A stretch of DNA of 24,000 bases from positions 1 to 24,000 of the forward strand of contig JBGSPI010000130.1 of the NCBI GenBank assembly GCA_041738715.1, in the 5' to 3' direction. The notes below the pieces were generated by a model that was not told where the DNA came from, did not search any database, and saw nothing but the letters and a program-made list of their open reading frames with translations. Below, in pieces: positions 3,435 to 18,791 of the stretch. Position 1 is the first letter of the stretch; every line of letters starts with the position of its first letter. The translations under genes and the position numbers were made by a program. This DNA is from Chamaesiphon sp. GTDB taxonomy: Bacteria > Cyanobacteriota > Cyanobacteriia > Cyanobacteriales > Chamaesiphonaceae.

Positions 3435-4601
3435 CTAACTCAACAATTTCTGGATTCTCTCACCAGTGCGTTGATTTTCCGATGGAGAACCAATCGAAAT
3501 TCGCAATCCGCCACCCGTATATCTAATCAAAGTTCCCTGTTTTTTCAACTGTGCGACTAGCTCTGCCATTGCCAAATCAGGGTTACTTAAACCCTGAATT
3601 CTGGCATACAAGAAATTAGCATTACTTCGCCAGATTTCGAGATGATTAATTTTAGCTAATTGATTAAATAATCGATCGCGTTCACCAATTATTTCAGGAA
3701 TAACTGCAAGTAGCGAATTACGATTTTTCAAGACTAATTCTGCGGCTGCAAGTGAAAAACTTGGTAAATTATAGGGCAACCTGACTTTCTCCAATGCCGC
3801 GATTAATTGGGGATCCCCAATCCCATAACCCACACGATGAGCCGCTAGTCGAAATGCTTTCGAGAAAGTGCGCAACACAATCCAATTTGGTCGTTGGGTT
3901 AATTCAGCTACTACTGTATGTTGACTGAACTCAAAATAAGCTTCATCCACTACTACTAAAATATCTGACGGCAAACTGCGTAACCATTCTAATTCAGCTA
4001 CCGTCAAGGCATTACTAGTTGGTGAATTAGGATGCACCATAAAGACCACCCGAATCGGTGGATCTGTTTGAGTATCAATAGCCTTCTGCGCCGCCGCTAA
4101 ATCCACTGCAAAATCCACTGGAGATCGATCGACACTCACCACTGGAATCCCCAATGTTTGGGCTAAAATTCCATACATACTAAACGTAGGATTAGCGACT
4201 AAAATACTGCCGGCACCATCGATACAAGTAGCGATTAAAATCGATCGAATTAACTCATCCGAACCATTCCCTACCGTAATCCGATCGGGTAAAATTTCGA
4301 GATTACCACCCGCCGATTCTGCTATATATTTGGCGATCGCCACCTTGAGATTACCATGTCCACCATCAGGATAACGATTGCTCTCGATCGATTTCACCCA
4401 GATCTGCGCTAACTCCTCCTTCAGAGCTAATGGCAAATCGTAGGGATTTTCGTTCGTATCCAATCGATCAATCTCCATCGCCACAGATTGCCCATCAGTA
4501 CCACCAGGATGGGGCGTGTAGGCTTGGAACCTCGTAAGTTCGGGACGAACGAAGGATAGTGCGGTTGTTGTTGGCGGAACGCTCTGCTGATCGGTAGTCA
4601 T
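3435..4601 (-). CDS. hisC: Histidinol-phosphate aminotransferase
   Basis: The product carries the TNENPYDLP motif and the PLP-lysine context RTFSKAFRLAAHRVGYG, and it has class-II aminotransferase length. I place the start at the ATG at 4601 (MTTDQQ...). The track ORF extends to a GTG at 4661, inside the hairpin-rich IscB element end. Confidence 0.85.
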   Translation of the reverse strand: MTTDQQSVPPTTTALSFVRPELTRFQAYTPHPGGTDGQSVAMEIDRLDTNENPYDLPLALKEELAQIWVKSIESNRYPDGGHGNLKVAIAKYIAESAGGNLEILPDRITVGNGSDELIRSILIATCIDGAGSILVANPTFSMYGILAQTLGIPVVSVDRSPVDFAVDLAAAQKAIDTQTDPPIRVVFMVHPNSPTSNALTVAELEWLRSLPSDILVVVDEAYFEFSQHTVVAELTQRPNWIVLRTFSKAFRLAAHRVGYGIGDPQLIAALEKVRLPYNLPSFSLAAAELVLKNRNSLLAVIPEIIGERDRLFNQLAKINHLEIWRSNANFLYARIQGLSNPDLAMAELVAQLKKQGTLIRYTGGGLRISIGSPSENQRTGERIQKLLS

Positions 4602-4687
4602 AAGAAAATAATGGGAGGTCGGGAAACCCCGTCGTTTCAACGCGGGGAGGAACGACGACACGAGCGGTTTTAACCGCTTGAATGCGC

Positions 4688-6016
4688 CTACGAGTGAAAC
4701 TGGTAGTTGTATCCGTCTTTACGATGAATCACTTCACAATATTTATGACTAATACCCTGCACTAAACCAATTTTTGTTGAGATGTTAAATGACCCTGATG
4801 TTCTAACCGCAATCCGACCGACATAAAGACCTATCTTCTTGCCAGTTGTCACAACAGATTTCACAATATCTCCTGTTTGAAATCCTCTAACAAATTTGTC
4901 GCGGGGGACAAATCGGTTAGGGAATCCAAACTTATCGGTACGGCACATCTGTCTAGTGCCGTGACCTTGTGCTTTAATCAGCAACGGTTGAGTAATTAGC
5001 ACGAATAGAGTTTCAACAACACCAACACAAGCGGCATCCAGCCAGTGAGTTTTAGGTAAACCCAATCGAGTCCTGTTGAACTTAGTTAAGCCACCAGAAC
5101 ACGTTTTCACTGGTAATTCAGTCGCTTTTAGAGCATTGAATAATGCCCATCGAGTTGAGTTAATCGCAGCCGCATCCTTTAAGGGACGTTTAGCTTGAAG
5201 TTGGATTTTCTTCAGCAATTCAGGTTTCTTTGACAAGAAATCTTTAATATCCAAAGTTCCTTTCTTCTGGTTACACTTTTCACAAGCCAAGCATAAATTA
5301 GAGATCCGATTAGATCCTCCTTTAGCCTTGGGTTGGATATGTTCAATTTGAAGCGGAACATTTTCAACCTGACAGTAGGCGCATTTTCGCGCCCACTTAT
5401 TGAGTAGGTATTCGCGAACTTCGTAGCCTAATAATTCGCCTTGCTGGTATTCAACCCCAGAGATTTCAGGATTCTCTAACTGCTGAAGATCGAAGCGAAC
5501 CAACTCTTGAACAATCGAGCCAATCGGTGCGAACTTAATTAGTTTGTTAACCCAAGTTAGAGTCGTGTCAACTCGATGTTGGAGGCTAGGAGCTAACCAA
5601 CCCTTTGCCCTTGTTCGATTGAGAAATCTGGCTTGACGATATCGAGTCTTTCGGTTGCGCCTGCCGCGTCGCAATTGACGACGGGACAATAGTGCAGCTT
5701 TGATGGTTGCACCTCGATGAGTTAGTTCCGCCGCCCAAATAACCTTGTCGTTTTGAAGCAATGCGATACCAGTAGTTTTACTACCAGGGTCAAGTTTGAC
5801 AACGATAGGAGTTGGGGTTCGATCGACTTCAGACTTGCGGCGCATCGAAGTTGAGGTTTCCTCAACTTTGTGTGCGTCAAGACAGAGGATGATCGTAAAT
5901 GGGTAAACCCTGTAGACAGCAGCTTTGCCAGCCTTGAGTAGCCGTCTAGCCGCCCCTGGATGGATTGGATCTAATGGTTGTTTATTTGAGTTGAGAACGA
6001 AAGTGAAATTAGACAT
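4688..6016 (-). CDS. iscB: IscB RNA-guided endonuclease (PLMP-like N-terminus, RuvC-I, Arg-rich bridge helix, RuvC-II, HNH, RuvC-III, C-terminal TAM-interacting region)
   Basis: Motifs in N-to-C order:
- PLMP-like region: NKQPLDPIHPGAARRLLKAGKA
- RuvC-I: VKLDPGSKTTGIALL
- bridge helix: RRQLRRGRRNRKTRYRQARFLNR
- RuvC-II: IVQELVRFD
- HNH with two Cys pairs: CAYC...LQIEHIQPKAKGGSNRISNLCLACEKCNQKKG
- RuvC-III: THWLDAACVG
I place the start at the ATG at 6016 (MSNFTFVL), which is preceded by AAGGAGG (complement of 6023-6029). The track ORF adds 12 upstream codons that lie in the omega-RNA region. Confidence 0.85.
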   Translation of the reverse strand: MSNFTFVLNSNKQPLDPIHPGAARRLLKAGKAAVYRVYPFTIILCLDAHKVEETSTSMRRKSEVDRTPTPIVVKLDPGSKTTGIALLQNDKVIWAAELTHRGATIKAALLSRRQLRRGRRNRKTRYRQARFLNRTRAKGWLAPSLQHRVDTTLTWVNKLIKFAPIGSIVQELVRFDLQQLENPEISGVEYQQGELLGYEVREYLLNKWARKCAYCQVENVPLQIEHIQPKAKGGSNRISNLCLACEKCNQKKGTLDIKDFLSKKPELLKKIQLQAKRPLKDAAAINSTRWALFNALKATELPVKTCSGGLTKFNRTRLGLPKTHWLDAACVGVVETLFVLITQPLLIKAQGHGTRQMCRTDKFGFPNRFVPRDKFVRGFQTGDIVKSVVTTGKKIGLYVGRIAVRTSGSFNISTKIGLVQGISHKYCEVIHRKDGYNYQFHS

Positions 6017-6290
6017 TACTGTCCTCCTTGCGGGTAATGTTTGCTTCGTCAATGTTATTTAGGCTTGTGGTCGGGTCGGCGACCCGACCGGCTAAACGCA
6101 CTGTTCCAGTGACCTTAGAACTGTTTAACGAGTAGCGATAGAGCAAGGGACTAGCACGCATCCCAGGATATCGTGACCTAATTAACGTAGCTAGATTGCT
6201 CTAGCTAAGACTGGTCAGCACGGCATTAGACTAAGTAGCCTGATGCCCCGTCTCTTCAGAGCGGGGTTGCTGACGGTGAGTTGGCGCAAG
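6017..6290 (-). ncRNA. Candidate IscB omega-RNA (HEARO-class RNA). The 5' boundary and guide position are not resolved.
   Basis: This stretch directly upstream of iscB has no plausible long ORF and is dense in stems:
- 9-bp stem 6070-6078/6082-6090 (ggtcgggtc/gacccgacc)
- 7-bp stem 6190-6196/6201-6207 (agctaga/tctagct)
- bulged stem ccccgtctc/gagcgggg at ~6246-6266
- long-range ggtcagc (~6213) with gctgacg (~6269)
Its position and size match what is known for IscB omega-RNAs. Confidence 0.5.
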
Positions 6291-6416
6291 TCTGAACTCT
6301 TATCATAGATCGATCGCTGGTATTAGTCGGCATAAATCTGCTGCGGTGGAATCACGAGACGGCTCTACTCCCTACTGCAAAATTTTCAACCCTCAGAAAA
6401 AAATATCGTTTAGGTA

Positions 6417-6445
6417 TTGACAGCGAGAAAAATATCCCGTATATT
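6417..6445 (+). promoter_or_regulatory. Sigma-70-type promoter of tRNA-Glu
   Basis: TTGACA (6417-6422), a 17-nt spacer and TATATT (6440-6445). The -10 element ends 18 nt before the mature tRNA 5' end. Confidence 0.6.
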
Positions 6446-6463: not shown

Positions 6464-6536
6464 GCCCCCATCGTCTAGAGGCCTAGGACACCTCCCTTTC
6501 ACGGAGGCGACAGGGATTCGATTTCCCTTGGGGGTA
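6464..6536 (+). tRNA. trnE: tRNA-Glu (anticodon UUC), CCA not encoded
   Basis: GCCCCCATCGTCTAGAGGCCTAGGACACCTCCCTTTCACGGAGGCGACAGGGATTCGATTTCCCTTGGGGGTA. It folds as a cloverleaf with acceptor GCCCCCA/TGGGGGT (G1-U72), anticodon loop CTTTCAC and a T-arm with GGATTCGATTTCC. It is very close to cyanobacterial and plastid tRNA-Glu. Confidence 0.95.
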
Positions 6537-6554
6537 TTTCAGAAATGATCAGTA

Positions 6555-6593
6555 AAAGAGGTCAGACAAAACTTGTCTGACCTCTTTTGTTTT
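6555..6593 (+). terminator. Rho-independent terminator of tRNA-Glu
   Basis: A perfect 15-bp stem (AAAGAGGTCAGACAA 6555-6569 with TTGTCTGACCTCTTT 6573-6587) and a 3-nt loop, followed by TGTTTT. Confidence 0.8.
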
Positions 6594-10152: not shown

Positions 10153-13100
10153 TTAATTTTCGATCGCACCTAATAATCGCAGGGTTTGGCGTTGTCCGAG
10201 CAGTAATCCCGTCGCACCAGTGATATTAGTATCTGCATAGGGAGGTTTGAGTTCGAGGGAGTAGAGCGGTTGACTAGCAATCTCTTCGCCACCATCTGCA
10301 CTTAGATCCCAGATCTTGATCGTGCCATCTTCACTAGCACTAAAAATCGTTGGCGTAGCCTCTCCATCAGCGCATCGACCAGCGGGACTATAGCAGATTG
10401 ACCACACCCAATTAGTATGTCCAGAGTAAGTTTCGAGACAATTACCCGTGATCAGATCCCACCGTTTGATCGTCCGATCGCAACTACCAGTAATTAATTC
10501 AGTCGATCGATCGGGGCTAAAGGCAACATTCATAATCCAACCTTGATGACCAACCAGCGTTTGTACGCACTGCCAATTACTGGTATCCCAGACTTTGGCG
10601 GTTGTATCCATGCTGCCAGTTGCTAAATAGCCACCATTGGGACTAAAAGCGATCGAGTGAGTCCGCTGGTAAGTGCTAAAAGAGTGGAGAAATTCACCCG
10701 TACTCAGATCCCAAATCTTGATGGTACTTTCCCTGGCAGTGGCGATCAGATTGTGGATCCGACAAATTGCGACTGATTGAATCGTCGGCAGATCGACCGA
10801 TAGAGTTCTAATCAGATTACCTGTCGCAATCTCCCAAATCTGAACTTCACCATGTTTACAACCCGCAATTAACCAAGATCCATCAGGACTGAACACCAAA
10901 CACCAACTACCTTCAACTTCCGCCTCGATCGTCTGAATACAACTAAAATCCTGTAAATCCCACAACCGAATCGTTCGATCGATCCCACTACTAGCAAAAT
11001 AATCCCCATCAGGACTAACCGCGATCGATAGCACCCCGGCAGTATGACCAGCCAGCGTCTGAATCCAGGTGCGGGTATCTAAATCCCAGATCCGAATCAA
11101 GCCATCTCGATAACCGCCGATCAGCCAGCGACAATCGGGAACAAGAGAGATCGAGCGAATCCAGTTACCATAGCCATTAATTGTTTTCAAACATTTGCGC
11201 CGTTGGAGATCGCAAATTTTGATAGTTCGATCGTCACTCCCACTAATCAATAACTGTCCATCCGGTGAGGCATCGATCGCCCAAATCCTTTGCTGGTGAG
11301 CACGAGAGATATCTAGACAACTGCCCGTATCCAAATCCCACATGCGGATTGTCCGGTCTTCACCAGCACTGATCAGGGTCTTGCCATCAGGAGTGCAGGC
11401 GATCGACCAAACCCAATCAGTATGTCCAGTTAAGGTTTGAATTAATTTCCCAGAACTTAGATCCCAGACGTAAATAGTGGCAGACATGCCACTCACAATC
11501 AGCCGACGACCATCAGGACTAAAAACTGTCCGAATTACCCAATGCTGGTGCGACAGAACATGCAAACACACCCCGGTTTTCAGATCCCAAATCCGCACTG
11601 TGCTATCAGCACTGGCTGTCGCCAATTGGCTCTCATCTGGACTGAGAGCCACGGAAAAGACCCAGTGGGTATGTCCGACCAATTCTCGTCTTAAGTCAAC
11701 CTCGATCGCCTGATTTTGGGCATCTGAGTGGATCTGGAAGTGATAAATCCGCACATTGTAATCGTGACCACCAGTGAATAATTTTTGCCCATCACGACTG
11801 AAACAGATCCGGCGAAACCCGCGCTTGTCCAAGCCCCGCGCGGGGATTTGGCGACCAGTGTGGAGATCCCAAAAGTTGATCGTCAGATCGTCACCAGAAC
11901 TAGCTAAGATGTTCCCATTTGGCGTAAATGCCAAAGACCGAATCCAGTTGGCGTGTCCTTGGTAAATTGCTAACCGTTGACCATCGCTAGTCCGCCAGAG
12001 ATGAACATCGCCATTACCATCCCCAGTGGCAAATAAATCTCCGGTGGGATGAAAGGCAACGGAGACAATTCCACCGAAGGTTTGGGTAAAGACTGTGCGA
12101 TCGAATGCCGCTCCAGCAAAATTGACGCGATCGAGATTGACATCGACAAGATCGGCTGACCAAATCGGTAAACCAGAGCAGTCTAAATCAGCGATCGAGC
12201 CATCTGGAGCCAGTTCGATCGATAAATTGAGGATATTTCCCGCTAGATATCCCAAGGGGATCGGATTTTGCTCTCGCCATCTCGTCAGAATTCGCCGTAG
12301 ATGCTCACTGAACAATTCTGGCGTGTCCCAAATTACCAAACATCGATTGAGAATGGGGCGTAAGATCAGTTGTGTTTGCGCTTGGCGGAGATAATCTTTG
12401 GTTTGGGCTTTGATGATGGCGTAATTATTAAGATGCCAAAACTGAGATTGAAGATCCGATCCGCCTAAAGCGGCTGGATCTGCGGTGAGTTCGCCGACGA
12501 TTTCATCGATGATTTTGCCAGTGACATAAGCCATCATCACGGGTTCTAGCGACCAAGTTTGCTCCTGTCGGACAGCGACACAGCGACGGAGTAGGGACTG
12601 GAGCGCATTGAGAATTTCTCCACCAATTGCTGGGTGGGGGACTAGATTTTCGCGCAATTCTTTGCTCGTAACTGGTTCGCGCTCGATCGCTAACCAGTAA
12701 ACTAGCTGTTGTTCGGGTGGTGAAAGTCGGGCAAATTGACGCTGGAGAATATCTTCGATCGTCTGAAACTTTAATTTACCTTCTTTCATCAGTGGGTATA
12801 GTCCTAAGACTGCTTCACCCCCGCCAGTCATGTCGATCGCGGCAATTGCTGCCATTTTGAGCGCGAGGGGATTGCCACTATAGTGAGTATATACCTCTTG
12901 CCACATCTGCGCCGGGATCGGTGGACAACCGCAGGATTGAACGAGTTCGTGAGCCATATCTGGGGTCAATCCCCCAACCGCAAAGGATCTGACGAGTTTG
13001 GGATGAATGACTTCCGATCGAGCAATCGGCTGTGGTTTTTCGCGACTGGTGATGAGTAGACAACTTTGGTGCGGAAGTTCGCCAATTGCTTTGAATAATT

Positions 13101-13878
13101 GTTCGTAGCCTTCATATCCCGGCAAATACTGCCCAGCGTGAACTTGACCTTGGAGAACCGATTCCACATTATCTAGCACAACTAGCGCGCGGTTGTGGGT
13201 GAGGTATGCGATCGTTAACTCGATTTGCCCCTCCACTGTATCGGGCAAATCTGCCAATGGTTGCGGACTCAAAAACTGCAACAAGTCCCGCAGAATATCG
13301 GTCACAGGGGGCGCATTAAGTAGCGATCGCCAAATTGCACAATCGAAATGCTCAGTTAAGCCGCTGACAAGTTTCCCCGCTAGGGTGGTTTTGCCCATAC
13401 CACCCGTACCCAGCAACGAGATCAACCGACTGCGTTCTGTCACACACCAACTAGTTAGAGTGGCGAGTTCCTCTGTCCGCCCATAAAACGGTGCATCACT
13501 TGCTTGACTGCTATTTGGACGTTGAATACTCTCACCCCAATCGATTTTGCTGCGCTGGGGAGGATCCGCTCTAAACTGATGGGCGATCGCAAATTCCGGT
13601 TGCTTACTGTACCACAGCAACACCGCGACTAAATTTTTCTTCGTTACCTTTTGCCCTAATCGCCAACTAAGTGCTTGCCATAAGCTGGCTCCAGTTTCTT
13701 TGACATAACTGATCTTGTATCGGTGAGAACCTTTCGCCTGATCATTGGAGATCGCCGCAATAATTTCCTGGTAGGACTTATTGGCAATCACCCCCCGAAT
13801 AATCTGGATCTGTAGGGAACTGAGGGGTTTGGGGGTTAAAACAGTTTCAACGATCGCTATTGCTCGATCGATATCCAT
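10153..13878 (-). CDS. STAND (NB-ARC / AP-ATPase) NTPase with an HTH-like N-terminal domain, a short pentapeptide-repeat stretch and 14 WD40 repeats
   Basis: NB-ARC motifs:
- Walker A: LLGTGGMGKTTLA (aa ~155-167, nt ~13380-13415)
- Walker B: ALVVLDNVES
- RNBS-B-like: LLITSRE
- GLPLAL-type motif: YSGNPLALKM
The N-terminal ~95 aa resemble a LuxR / sigma-70 region 4 HTH (LSSLQIQIIRGVIANKSYQEIIAAI...). A pentapeptide-like stretch (ADLVDVNLDRVNFAGAAFDRTVF) follows, then 14 repeats ending in W-D/L-type dipeptides (e.g. VRIWDL, IRMWDL, IRLWDL, IKIWDL) from aa ~600 to ~1200. Confidence 0.85.
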   Translation of the reverse strand: MDIDRAIAIVETVLTPKPLSSLQIQIIRGVIANKSYQEIIAAISNDQAKGSHRYKISYVKETGASLWQALSWRLGQKVTKKNLVAVLLWYSKQPEFAIAHQFRADPPQRSKIDWGESIQRPNSSQASDAPFYGRTEELATLTSWCVTERSRLISLLGTGGMGKTTLAGKLVSGLTEHFDCAIWRSLLNAPPVTDILRDLLQFLSPQPLADLPDTVEGQIELTIAYLTHNRALVVLDNVESVLQGQVHAGQYLPGYEGYEQLFKAIGELPHQSCLLITSREKPQPIARSEVIHPKLVRSFAVGGLTPDMAHELVQSCGCPPIPAQMWQEVYTHYSGNPLALKMAAIAAIDMTGGGEAVLGLYPLMKEGKLKFQTIEDILQRQFARLSPPEQQLVYWLAIEREPVTSKELRENLVPHPAIGGEILNALQSLLRRCVAVRQEQTWSLEPVMMAYVTGKIIDEIVGELTADPAALGGSDLQSQFWHLNNYAIIKAQTKDYLRQAQTQLILRPILNRCLVIWDTPELFSEHLRRILTRWREQNPIPLGYLAGNILNLSIELAPDGSIADLDCSGLPIWSADLVDVNLDRVNFAGAAFDRTVFTQTFGGIVSVAFHPTGDLFATGDGNGDVHLWRTSDGQRLAIYQGHANWIRSLAFTPNGNILASSGDDLTINFWDLHTGRQIPARGLDKRGFRRICFSRDGQKLFTGGHDYNVRIYHFQIHSDAQNQAIEVDLRRELVGHTHWVFSVALSPDESQLATASADSTVRIWDLKTGVCLHVLSHQHWVIRTVFSPDGRRLIVSGMSATIYVWDLSSGKLIQTLTGHTDWVWSIACTPDGKTLISAGEDRTIRMWDLDTGSCLDISRAHQQRIWAIDASPDGQLLISGSDDRTIKICDLQRRKCLKTINGYGNWIRSISLVPDCRWLIGGYRDGLIRIWDLDTRTWIQTLAGHTAGVLSIAVSPDGDYFASSGIDRTIRLWDLQDFSCIQTIEAEVEGSWCLVFSPDGSWLIAGCKHGEVQIWEIATGNLIRTLSVDLPTIQSVAICRIHNLIATARESTIKIWDLSTGEFLHSFSTYQRTHSIAFSPNGGYLATGSMDTTAKVWDTSNWQCVQTLVGHQGWIMNVAFSPDRSTELITGSCDRTIKRWDLITGNCLETYSGHTNWVWSICYSPAGRCADGEATPTIFSASEDGTIKIWDLSADGGEEIASQPLYSLELKPPYADTNITGATGLLLGQRQTLRLLGAIEN

Positions 13879-17370: not shown

Positions 17371-18791
17371 ATATCCCTCTTTTGTCACTTTAGTCAGAGC
17401 AAAATGGATGAACACTGAATAAACTCAAAGAATCAAAGGCATGAGCACAGAGATCGACAAAGGCAATCAACGTATTAAAACTCTGCTCCAAAAGTGGATT
17501 GCCAAAAATAGTCAGCCAGGGTTTAATTAAATTGAAGGCTAACAGCGGTAGCAATAATAGCTGAAGATTATTAAGGGCTGATTTCCAGCTTCGATGTTCA
17601 TCCCAATGAGGATGTTTTGCTAAATAACTCTTGAGTTCTGCTTCGACAATCTTTGGCTCAATCGATTCAGAGGCGATCGCGGGGAGAGACTGCAAACTAA
17701 CTAATAGAAATGCACAAGATATTATTTCCCACCACCGCGCAATATCTAAATAATTAGTTAGTCTAAAATCTGACCATCCTAGCTCGGATTTACACTGTCT
17801 AAATCCATACTCTACCCAAGTTCTCTCTCCGTAGATATTCCCAACGTCCGAACATTCAATGTTGGCAATGTTCGTCATAACATAGGATGTACTATTCGGC
17901 GGTAACGTTTTAGTATCTGTAGTTAAATCCCAATAAGTATAGTGTCCTCGTTGACCAAATATTACTTCACGAACATATCTAGTTTCTGGTGGATGAGCCG
18001 CAAACGTTCGGGTGAATTTACGCCATTTTGTCTGTCTAACCTTTGCCGTATCTGGCATCCACACTCCATGATTGCTTCTAATCGATACCATAAATTGTAA
18101 ATTTAATTTCTCCAATACTCTTAGTACAGCAGTTGGACTTTCTCCATATAAGCTGTCTGCTAGGACATAGCGAATATTAAATCCGAGTTCTACCAACTCC
18201 GTTACTAGTTTAGCTGCTATTTGCGGCTTACTCTGATAAATATCATCTAATTTCAGTGTGGATTTAGGTTTGTAGATCTCAAATATTAATGGAAATGTAA
18301 TTCCGTCTTTGACTCCATAAATATTCACGCTGACAATTCCATTATCAACTTTGCCCAGTCTACCTAAATATTGCCTAGCTACATAATCAGTATGAGTTCC
18401 TTTCTTGCGGTCGCCTGTTTCATCAATAATGATATCTATAGCTGCTTGTTTTAACCATTCTTTAGTTAGCTTGAGTCTATTTGCTCGTAACTGTTGATAT
18501 GACCAAGGTGACTCTGTGATAAAATTATGCAATGATTGGCTGTTTTTTAGTCCAACAATTTCTCCAATTGTTGTTAAACTCTTTCTCTGTGATGGTGTGA
18601 TAATTCCTAAGAGCATTCGCTTAAATGCTTCATAGCTTCTAACTTCTGGAAATATCTTTTGATACTGGCTGCAATATTGGTCGATTACACTAATTGTGGG
18701 TACTGCTGCTCTTGGCTGTGTCACATGCCCTGCTTGCTCTCTAGCCTTTTTATTCCATTTTAGCTCACCCAGAGTGACAGAAGAGGGATAT
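17371..18791 (-). mobile_element. IS701-family insertion sequence (1421 bp) with imperfect terminal inverted repeats
   Basis: The left terminus ATATCCCTCTTTTGTCACT (17371-17389) matches the reverse complement of 18773-18791 (ATATCCCTCTTCTGTCACT) at 18 of 19 positions. Similarity resumes further inward (..GAGC(T)AAAATGGA on both ends), so the repeats span ~40 bp. A single transposase ORF fills the element. Confidence 0.8.
17390..18724 (-). CDS. IS701-family DDE transposase
   Basis: The 444-aa product has an N-terminal block typical of the IS701 / SRSO17-type (COG5659) transposases, as I recall them (YEAFKRMLLGIITPSQRKSLTTIGE...SQSLHNFITESPWS). It also has IIIDETGDRKKGTHTDYVARQYLGRLGKVDNGIVSV (first catalytic Asp region) and a later LADSLYGES (second Asp). 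Its stop codon lies inside the left inverted repeat. Confidence 0.85.
   Translation of the reverse strand: MTQPRAAVPTISVIDQYCSQYQKIFPEVRSYEAFKRMLLGIITPSQRKSLTTIGEIVGLKNSQSLHNFITESPWSYQQLRANRLKLTKEWLKQAAIDIIIDETGDRKKGTHTDYVARQYLGRLGKVDNGIVSVNIYGVKDGITFPLIFEIYKPKSTLKLDDIYQSKPQIAAKLVTELVELGFNIRYVLADSLYGESPTAVLRVLEKLNLQFMVSIRSNHGVWMPDTAKVRQTKWRKFTRTFAAHPPETRYVREVIFGQRGHYTYWDLTTDTKTLPPNSTSYVMTNIANIECSDVGNIYGERTWVEYGFRQCKSELGWSDFRLTNYLDIARWWEIISCAFLLVSLQSLPAIASESIEPKIVEAELKSYLAKHPHWDEHRSWKSALNNLQLLLLPLLAFNLIKPWLTIFGNPLLEQSFNTLIAFVDLCAHAFDSLSLFSVHPFCSD

Follow-up and report, generated by a model that had tools for sequence, protein, structure and literature searches.

The 24-kb stretch of cyanobacterial DNA that was analyzed (the window) carries on its minus strand a gene for the RNA-guided endonuclease IscB, an omega-RNA directly upstream of that gene, and the host gene hisC directly downstream (Table 1). 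The window also includes tRNA-Glu, rfbC, rsmH, murD, and lexA, in line with the housekeeping neighborhood described in an earlier note that was made from the sequence alone. A longer iscB open reading frame (ORF) of 454 amino acids with a TTG start at 6052 is unlikely. The ATG at 6016 is preferred because it is preceded by a Shine-Dalgarno sequence and because relatives of the protein begin with MSNF.

Table 1. Features of the IscB locus (positions in the window)
Feature	Position	Strand	Sequence or product	Basis or remark
hisC	3435..4601	(-)	Histidinol-phosphate aminotransferase, 388 aa + stop	Pfam Aminotran_1_2; homologue names
Target/transposon-adjacent motif (TAM)	4598..4601	(-); TCAT on IS top strand	ATGA	Host sequence
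Transposon left end (LE)	4602..4687	(-); IS top strand = window + strand		Conserved across loci; compensatory hairpin changes
LE hairpins	Within 4602..4687		GCGGTTAAAACCGC and CCCCGCGTTGAAACGACGGGG (4627-4647)	
iscB ORF	4688..6016	(-)	442 aa + stop; ATG at 6016, stop 4690-4688	Profiles, residue alignment, dN/dS
48-nt imperfect palindrome in iscB	5838..5885	(-)	In frame, copy specific	Absent from all aligned relatives
Shine-Dalgarno sequence for iscB	6023..6029	(-)	AAGGAGG	Read from sequence, 6 nt ahead of ATG
Omega-RNA scaffold (HEARO)	6034..6274	(-)		Rfam RF02033; 5' end coincides with the right end
19-nt palindromic insertion in omega-RNA	6071..6089	(-)	GGTCGGGTCGCCGACCCGA, copy specific	Not present in L089, the nearest full-length relative
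Right end (RE) subterminal hairpin	6246..6266	(-)	CCCCGCUCUGAAGAGACGGGG	Resembles LE hairpin
Predicted omega-RNA guide	~6275..6290	(-)	5'-CUUGCGCCAACUCACC-3'	Host hisC 5'-UTR abutting RE

The gene is a real and intact-looking iscB whose product is predicted from its sequence to be an active nuclease. The protein matched the NCBIfam equivalog model NF040563 ("RNA-guided endonuclease IscB") with 460.3 bits against a cutoff of 175, over profile positions 2 to 314 of 314, and Pfam RRXRR with 235 bits over profile positions 2 to 174 of 174. Matches to Pfam HNH and HNH_5 cover residues 212 to 254 in the 442-aa numbering used here (224 to 266 in the TTG-start ORF that was scanned), and the RuvC domain is split. 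The N terminus aligns with residues 4 to 115 of OgeuIscB-type chains ("kPLmP" versus "qPLdP"). The RuvC catalytic residues D76 (RuvC-I, within LDPGS), E171 (RuvC-II), and H324 and D327 (RuvC-III) align with the IDPG, ELnRF, and HylDA motifs of solved IscBs. The HNH residues are H226, which aligns with the catalytic histidine of OgeuIscB, N240, and N249, and the zinc cysteines C212, C215, C245, and C248 have the CxxC...CxxC arrangement. With OgeuIscB and TbaIscB as structural references, no catalytic residue was substituted, and all of the listed RuvC, HNH, and zinc residues were invariant in 47 relatives. The equivalog model and the structure alignment thus agree with the earlier note, which had proposed the full IscB domain order (PLMP, RuvC-I, Arg-rich bridge helix, RuvC-II, HNH, RuvC-III) with intact catalytic residues. 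The dN/dS ratio relative to L089 (87% amino acid identity) was 0.08, a value that averages over both lineages, and indicates that IscB has been under purifying selection.

OgeuIscB is a CRISPR-independent nuclease with the TAM NWRRNA; the TAM predicted for the IscB described here is ATGA. The two proteins share their domain order, and the catalytic residues seen in the OgeuIscB-omegaRNA structures (PDB 7UTN, 7XHT, and 8CSZ) align with D76, E171, H226, H324, and D327. OgeuIscB is longer (496 versus 442 aa), and the sequence alignment covers only the N-terminal ~330 residues (phmmer E~1e-24), with the C-terminal TAM-interacting region unaligned. Across the family, residues ~335 to 442 are conserved (full-length matches reach as low as 40% identity), and they have no sequence alignment to the TAM-interacting domains of solved structures. 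An AF2 model built from 47 sequences, each of which was 75% or more identical to the query, had a mean pLDDT of 48 and a pTM of 0.34, too low to assign a fold to this region. The best match among solved structures was TbaIscB (PDB 9K30; E=6e-38, profile E=2e-50), which aligns over the bridge helix, RuvC-II, HNH, and RuvC-III; TbaIscB (1068 aa) has a large extension at its N terminus that the protein described here lacks. Type II CRISPR-Cas9 and Cas9d have a homologous RuvC and HNH core and likewise combine a guide RNA with a 3' adjacent motif, but the system described here has no REC lobe, CRISPR array, tracrRNA, or cas1/cas2. Scores with the Cas9d model (37.7, cutoff 375) and the Cas9 model (12.9, cutoff 100) were both far below the cutoffs.

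The prediction in the earlier note of an omega-RNA just upstream of iscB was confirmed with a covariance-model search, which returned a full-length HEARO match (RF02033; 134.7 bits, gathering score 83, E=3e-28, model positions 1 to 211 of 211). The match has the same orientation as iscB and stops 18 nt short of its ATG, consistent with the known position of HEARO RNA directly 5' of an HNH/RuvC ORF. The minimum free energy z-score of the region was -4.3, and HEARO lay upstream of IscB in 10 of the 10 related loci tested. In the omega-RNA, the RE hairpin doubles as the first of the inner stem-loops.

The ends of the element were fixed by comparing ~80 cyanobacterial loci and insertion-free orthologous loci. 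The right end is sharp: across 72 loci, conservation is 100% at 6274/6273 and at background level at 6275. At the left end, conservation among loci reaches the base preceding ATGA. ATGA adjoins this conserved end in all 80 of the loci with downstream sequence to examine, the window counted as one; the base that follows, the fifth TAM position, varies among loci and is C in the window. Thus, the span of 4610-6300 in the earlier note was close, but the exact values are 4602-6274 for the element, with a guide extending to ~6290 and the motif at 4598-4601. Both ends have subterminal hairpins (CCCCGCGTTGAAACGACGGGG in LE, CCCCGCTCTGAAGAGACGGGG in RE) rather than terminal inverted repeats. These two hairpins are similar, and LE/RE pairs covary between element subfamilies, as in IS200/IS605 elements.

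The insertion point lies between the hisC 5'-UTR and the hisC ATG. The ATG of the flanking ATGA is the hisC start codon, and ATGA is uninterrupted in insertion-free relatives. There is no target-site duplication at the element, and the joined flanks are colinear with empty orthologous sites across the junction. Loci L084 to L088, which do not have the insertion, keep the order rsmH-rfbC-tRNA-Glu-hisC, and HisC identity at orthologous loci without the element is 78 to 79%. Therefore, the insertion is lineage specific. The tRNA-Glu gene was considered as an integration target and rejected because the order of tRNA and hisC is identical in relatives without the element. The empty joint at the locus would read ...CAACTCACCATGACTACC... 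Neither the exact empty junction (GCCAACTCACC joined to ATGACTACCG) nor the occupied junction, used as a control, was found in JGI metagenomes (0 matches each). This result indicates that the organism is outside the JGI collection and makes the null result for the empty junction uninformative on the empty allele.

Landing ahead of ATGA start codons is general for this IscB element family. In 44 of 78 loci, the ATG of the flanking ATGA opens an ORF that is 100 codons or longer; among control ATGA sites, the proportion is 14%. HEARO elements reportedly integrate immediately upstream of ATGA or GTGA, often a start codon, and both the locus counts and the empty-site comparison agree with this rule.

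The host sequence abutting RE is the predicted guide. Its length of 16 nt was assumed by analogy with OgeuIscB; a range of 16 to 20 nt is used in the mechanism proposed below. The homologous stretch leads directly into the hisC ATG in insertion-free relatives. The guide sequence is unique in the window, in which there is no second guide target and no second IscB or HEARO copy. A promoter scan of the minus strand ahead of the guide detected no canonical sigma-70 promoter; the region contains only a conserved TATGAT at 6307-6302.

The interpretation that best accounts for these features, to which we assign a probability of roughly 85%, is that positions 4602-6274 are a 1673-bp nonautonomous IS200/IS605-family (ISC/OMEGA) element that carries IscB and its omega-RNA and is probably mobilized and retained by the published mechanism. 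There was no Y1 transposase (Y1_Tnp/TnpA) among window ORFs of at least 110 aa, and there were no cas genes, including cas1/cas2, or CRISPR array-like repeats in the 24-kb window, in agreement with the description in the earlier note of a minimal nonautonomous unit. The absence of TnpA in cis is expected because the element is nonautonomous and because only ~1.5% of iscB genes have a tnpA nearby (bioRxiv 10.1101/2023.03.14.532601). L089 is in an unrelated, phage-like context, and its similarity to the element stops at the same two boundaries, demonstrating that the subfamily has moved. Several genomes have multiple copies, for example, Microcoleus Neu2020_600 with 8 listed loci.

The closest functional precedent is the GstIscB element of Geobacillus stearothermophilus, for which the mechanism, the position of the omega-RNA at RE, and the TAM TTCAT (ATGAA on the IscB strand) have been published (Meers et al., bioRxiv 10.1101/2023.03.14.532601). 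That element is likewise a nonautonomous IS200/IS605-type element with an omega-RNA upstream of iscB that is bounded by RE and uses the flank as guide. Its LE-abutting TAM has the same ATGA core as the TAM predicted here, whereas its host belongs to a different phylum. By analogy, transcription that reads in from the hisC promoter region would produce an RNA in which the first 16 to 20 nt are a guide from the host 5'-UTR (6275-~6290), fused to the HEARO scaffold and followed by the iscB mRNA and probably also hisC. IscB would bind the omega-RNA. If another part of the genome encodes a Y1 TnpA, that enzyme would excise the element, and the resealed donor joint, CTTGCGCCAACTCACC followed directly by ATGA, would then offer a match to the guide and a 3' TAM. 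IscB may cut both strands of this joint with RuvC and HNH, and repair of the cut donor joint would restore the element. The occupied locus would be immune because GTCA, not ATGA, comes after the guide match.

It is also conceivable, but improbable, that the element is a recently inactivated relic that looks intact but was made nonfunctional or immobile by insertions or by the missing TnpA. The conclusion in the earlier note that nothing looks degenerate holds for the catalytic residues and the reading frame, but this copy has two private palindromic insertions, which might impair activity. The first, 48 nt long, adds the 16 residues CLDAHKVEETSTSMRR (aa 45 to 60) between the PLMP domain and RuvC-I, and includes a perfect hairpin, GTTGAGGAAACCTCAAC, at 5850-5866 that is unique in the window. 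The second is a 19-nt hairpin, an insertion relative to the HEARO model in a junction region of the RNA. The absence of the 16-aa and 19-nt insertions from every aligned relative would fit inactivation, as would the single copy and the lack of TnpA in the window. However, the reading frame is kept with all catalytic residues intact, and the 16-aa insertion is in an interdomain linker; relatives tolerate other in-frame insertions both there and in the bridge-helix region. Furthermore, the HEARO score is not below that of L089 (134.7 versus 131.1), LE and RE are intact, and the low dN/dS, though averaged over both lineages, also argues against a relic.

Domestication, in which IscB and the omega-RNA would have lost their selfish character and would work for the host (for instance, in the regulation or protection of hisC expression), is very unlikely. 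The position of the element exactly at the hisC start codon, where it is probably cotranscribed with hisC, could be read as host use, and the same protein and context were found in three independent sequencing runs (Logan: SRR28170473, SRR28170474, and ERR14788459). However, placement at start codons is general for the family, the element is missing from orthologous loci at 78 to 79% HisC identity, its transposon ends and TAM are intact, and its closest relative occupies an unrelated site. We give practically no credence to a plain HNH/McrA-type restriction endonuclease that is not RNA guided, a reading suggested by JGI automatic names that call many homologues "5-methylcytosine-specific restriction endonuclease McrA" and refuted by the HEARO RNA upstream, by an HNH domain of only ~45 residues inside a split RuvC fold, and by the fit of the whole protein, from PLMP through RuvC-III, to the IscB equivalog and to solved IscB structures.

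A mobile, nonautonomous IscB element thus remains the preferred interpretation, and as such, it is one of thousands with near-identical architecture in filamentous cyanobacteria. It is ordinary in the sense that the family is very large (898 clusters at 50% identity, E<=1e-30) and already named by NCBI curated models, close homologues being designated "RNA-guided endonuclease IscB." IscB-omega-RNA systems, the HEARO RNA, the logic of the TAM, and a role in transposon retention have all been described previously, and reference annotation already has a name for this abundant clade. The protein is compact and has a predicted 4-nt TAM, and it could be considered in screens for editors, as could thousands of equivalents. 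The small palindromes private to this copy might be traces left by another class of in-frame palindromic inserts, one not yet described.

The locus provides a clean natural example of an IscB element located precisely at a start codon, in which the host 5'-UTR would become the guide and for which an insertion-free orthologous site is available for comparison. A further suggestion, which we regard as doubtful, is that the element and hisC are now one obligate transcription unit. In that case, an IscB lineage that lands at start codons by targeting ATGA would borrow a host promoter and 5'-UTR for its guide RNA, and hisC would depend on read-through across the element, with the left end as its new leader. 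The dosage of IscB and omega-RNA would then be coupled to the regulation of histidine biosynthesis.

The IscB element in the window is real, was correctly interpreted by the earlier note, and is ordinary. The protein that the note had called a 442-amino-acid IscB scored 460 bits against the NCBIfam equivalog NF040563, "RNA-guided endonuclease IscB" (cutoff, 175), and Pfam searches found a complete RRXRR domain (235 bits) plus HNH/HNH_5, which bears out the assignment. The TTG start at 6052 in a mechanical ORF list was rejected; relatives all start with MSNF at the ATG at 6016, and the length of 442 amino acids is therefore correct. The top matches among solved structures were TbaIscB (9K30), several OgeuIscB entries (7UTN, 7XHT), and HfmIscB, with IsrB and Cas9-like chains scoring lower. 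Replacing the single sequence with a family profile raised the scores of all of these matches. The catalytic residues, which had been described as apparently intact, and the four zinc cysteines align with those of solved IscBs and are invariant in 47 relatives. As far as sequence can tell, the protein has all of the testable defining features of IscB, leaving aside the C-terminal TAM-interacting domain. That region is conserved within the IscB family, but it had no alignable homologue among solved structures with either the single sequence or the family profile, and the quality of the AF2 model was too low for placing the domain.

The omega-RNA predicted to lie just upstream of iscB was found there as a full-length match to the Rfam HEARO model (134.7 bits; gathering score, 83), in a region that folds more stably than shuffled sequences (z = -4.3). 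The claimed absence of TnpA, a CRISPR array, and cas1/cas2 also held: the 24-kb window has neither a Y1 transposase nor a cas gene, nor any array-like repeats. More than 8000 homologues sharing words with the protein were returned, the family comprises 898 clusters at 50% identity (E ≤ 1e-30), and close relatives are already labelled "RNA-guided endonuclease IscB" by NCBI. The element is one more member of a known family. The JGI "McrA" names are automatic and HNH-based, and they misname the protein as a whole.

Element boundaries were determined with 80 loci encoding IscB relatives, fetched from species-representative genomes. Nearly all are from filamentous cyanobacteria (e.g., Microcoleus, Tychonema, Planktothrix, Scytonema, and Anabaena), and several of the genomes have many IscB copies. 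When the upstream regions of 72 loci were aligned with the window, column conservation was 100% at G6274 and T6273 and at background (about 30%) from 6275 outward, which makes the omega-RNA scaffold's first base the terminal base of the element. Beyond the iscB stop, a conserved structured tail ends directly before ATGA in 80/80 loci examined, and the related sequences diverge past this ATGA. The nearest HisC homologues (78-79% identity) are on contigs with the rsmH-rfbC-tRNA-Glu-hisC order of the window, without IscB. The window flanks, joined in silico, were colinear with insertion-free orthologous sites across the junction (...GATCTATGATAAGAGTTCAGAC-(16 nt)-ATGAC...), with no gap or duplication there in the alignment. 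The conservation boundaries and the colinear empty sites thus define the element and assign the ATGA to the host.

A hairpin lies close to each end of the element, CCCCGCTCTGAAGAGACGGGG on the omega-RNA side and CCCCGCGTTGAAACGACGGGG on the opposite side; the two are similar and co-change across element subfamilies. Such co-changing, like end hairpins are a hallmark of IS200/IS605 elements, in which two ends are read by one TnpA. The GstIscB TAM, TTCAT, is ATGAA on the IscB strand (bioRxiv 10.1101/2023.03.14.532601), and the plus strand of the window is therefore the IS top strand, with TCAT abutting the left end (LE) and the right end (RE) closing the element. In 44/78 loci, the ATG of the flanking ATGA starts an ORF with 100 codons or more, versus 14% of control ATGA sites. 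A tendency to insert, or to survive, immediately ahead of start codons is thus shared across the IscB family. The original HEARO description reportedly remarks on this as well. In many subfamilies (e.g., loci L046, L054, L071, L078, and L009), GGAGG or GGGGG lies 8-12 nt before the flanking ATGA, a Shine-Dalgarno-like motif whose position would suit the host start codon that follows; the window LE has CCTCCC there.

Up to the element boundaries, the flanks of three related Microcoleus loci (L057:3700-5340 compared with L077:3700-5340 and L083) share 95-98% identity, and these loci have the same guide flank and a common downstream ATGAGTAAAATATC. The IscB elements enclosed by these flanks are only ~55-70% identical, with different LE/RE hairpin types. 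Near-identical flanks around dissimilar elements thus place two IscB subfamilies at exactly one site in different strains, either by independent insertion or by replacement.

The closest full-length relative (L089, Logan assembly; 87% amino acid identity) is in an unrelated phage-like neighbourhood, and its similarity to the window ends at the identical two element boundaries. Therefore, the subfamily has transposed. The dN/dS between the two iscB genes is 0.08 (dS, 0.73), which indicates strong purifying selection. It is possible but not likely that the window copy is inactivated by the two palindromic insertions private to it. Unrelated insertions, likewise in frame, are tolerated by other relatives in the linker between the PLMP domain and RuvC-I as well as in the bridge-helix region, and the HEARO score is no lower than that of L089, which is why inactivation was judged not likely. 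In three relatives (P0014, P0016, and P0034), a different insert, also in frame and encoding AKSAVLGFPQVEHLFKT, lies elsewhere. The sequences suggest that these genes often contain, and tolerate, very small hairpin-type inserts.

Features of the IscB element and of the surrounding window
Feature	Position	Strand	Remarks
IscB element	4602-6274		1673 bp
iscB ORF	ATG 6016, stop 4690-4688	-	442 aa
AAGGAGG	6 nt upstream of iscB ATG	-	Shine-Dalgarno type; sequence reading
RuvC-I Asp	D76		in LDPGS
RuvC-II Glu	E171
HNH His	H226		aligned with OgeuIscB catalytic His
Zinc cysteines	C212, C215, C245, C248
RuvC-III His and Asp	H324, D327
HEARO match	6034-6274	-
16 nt before scaffold	6275-6290		CTTGCGCCAACTCACC; once hisC 5'-UTR
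Flanking ATGA	4601-4598		host sequence; its ATG is the hisC start codon (388 aa)
Private insertion 1 (versus L089)	5838-5885		48 nt, in frame, palindromic, GC-rich; adds CLDAHKVEETSTSMRR between PLMP domain and RuvC-I
Private insertion 2 (versus L089)	6071-6089		19 nt, palindromic, GC-rich; in omega-RNA junction
Promoter TTGACA-17-TATATT	6417-6445	+	near consensus; just upstream of tRNA-Glu(UUC)
tRNA-Glu(UUC)	6464-6536
Inverted repeat	6554-6588		perfect, 16 bp; right after tRNA-Glu; conserved in relatives
WD40-repeat protein	10153-13878	-	1241 aa
Unrelated IS	17371-18791		DDE_5/DDE_Tnp_1 transposase ORF 17390-18724 (-)
Inverted repeats of unrelated IS	17371-17389, 18773-18791		19 nt

The inverted repeat after tRNA-Glu is likely its terminator. 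Three independent assemblies with an identical IscB protein (Logan contigs L001-L003) all break at one point inside this tRNA gene (~6486-6492 of the window), which points to a repeat, such as a multi-copy tRNA, or to strain variation there. Most direct-repeat families in the window are internal repeats of the WD40-repeat protein.

Transcription of this ordinary IscB element would, judging from the family, most likely enter from the hisC promoter region. The TATGAT block (6307-6302) is 100% conserved versus insertion-free relatives; a promoter scan of the minus strand upstream of the guide detected no canonical -35/-10 pair. A start a few bases downstream of TATGAT would give a guide of ~16-20 nt joined directly to the scaffold. 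IscB with this omega-RNA would recognise the 16 nt before the scaffold followed by ATGA, a combination expected nowhere but in the donor joint that forms when TnpA excises the element precisely. After cleavage, a sister copy would serve as the template for homologous repair and the element would be regained, a course of events demonstrated for Geobacillus elements (bioRxiv 10.1101/2023.03.14.532601). The occupied site would not be targeted because GTCA, not ATGA, follows the guide match, and the window contains no further guide match.

No part of the hisC leader is more diverged than the predicted guide: about half of its positions differ from the insertion-free orthologous loci L084-L088. Immediately upstream of it, 23 nt match those loci exactly. 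The divergence may only reflect an unconstrained 5'-UTR. The intergenic region of L084-L088 also lacks ~67 nt present in the window between the tRNA-Glu promoter region and the TATGAT block (~6311-6385). With the element in place, hisC is now 1.67 kb away from its promoter and must therefore be expressed through transcription that reads across the element or starts inside it.
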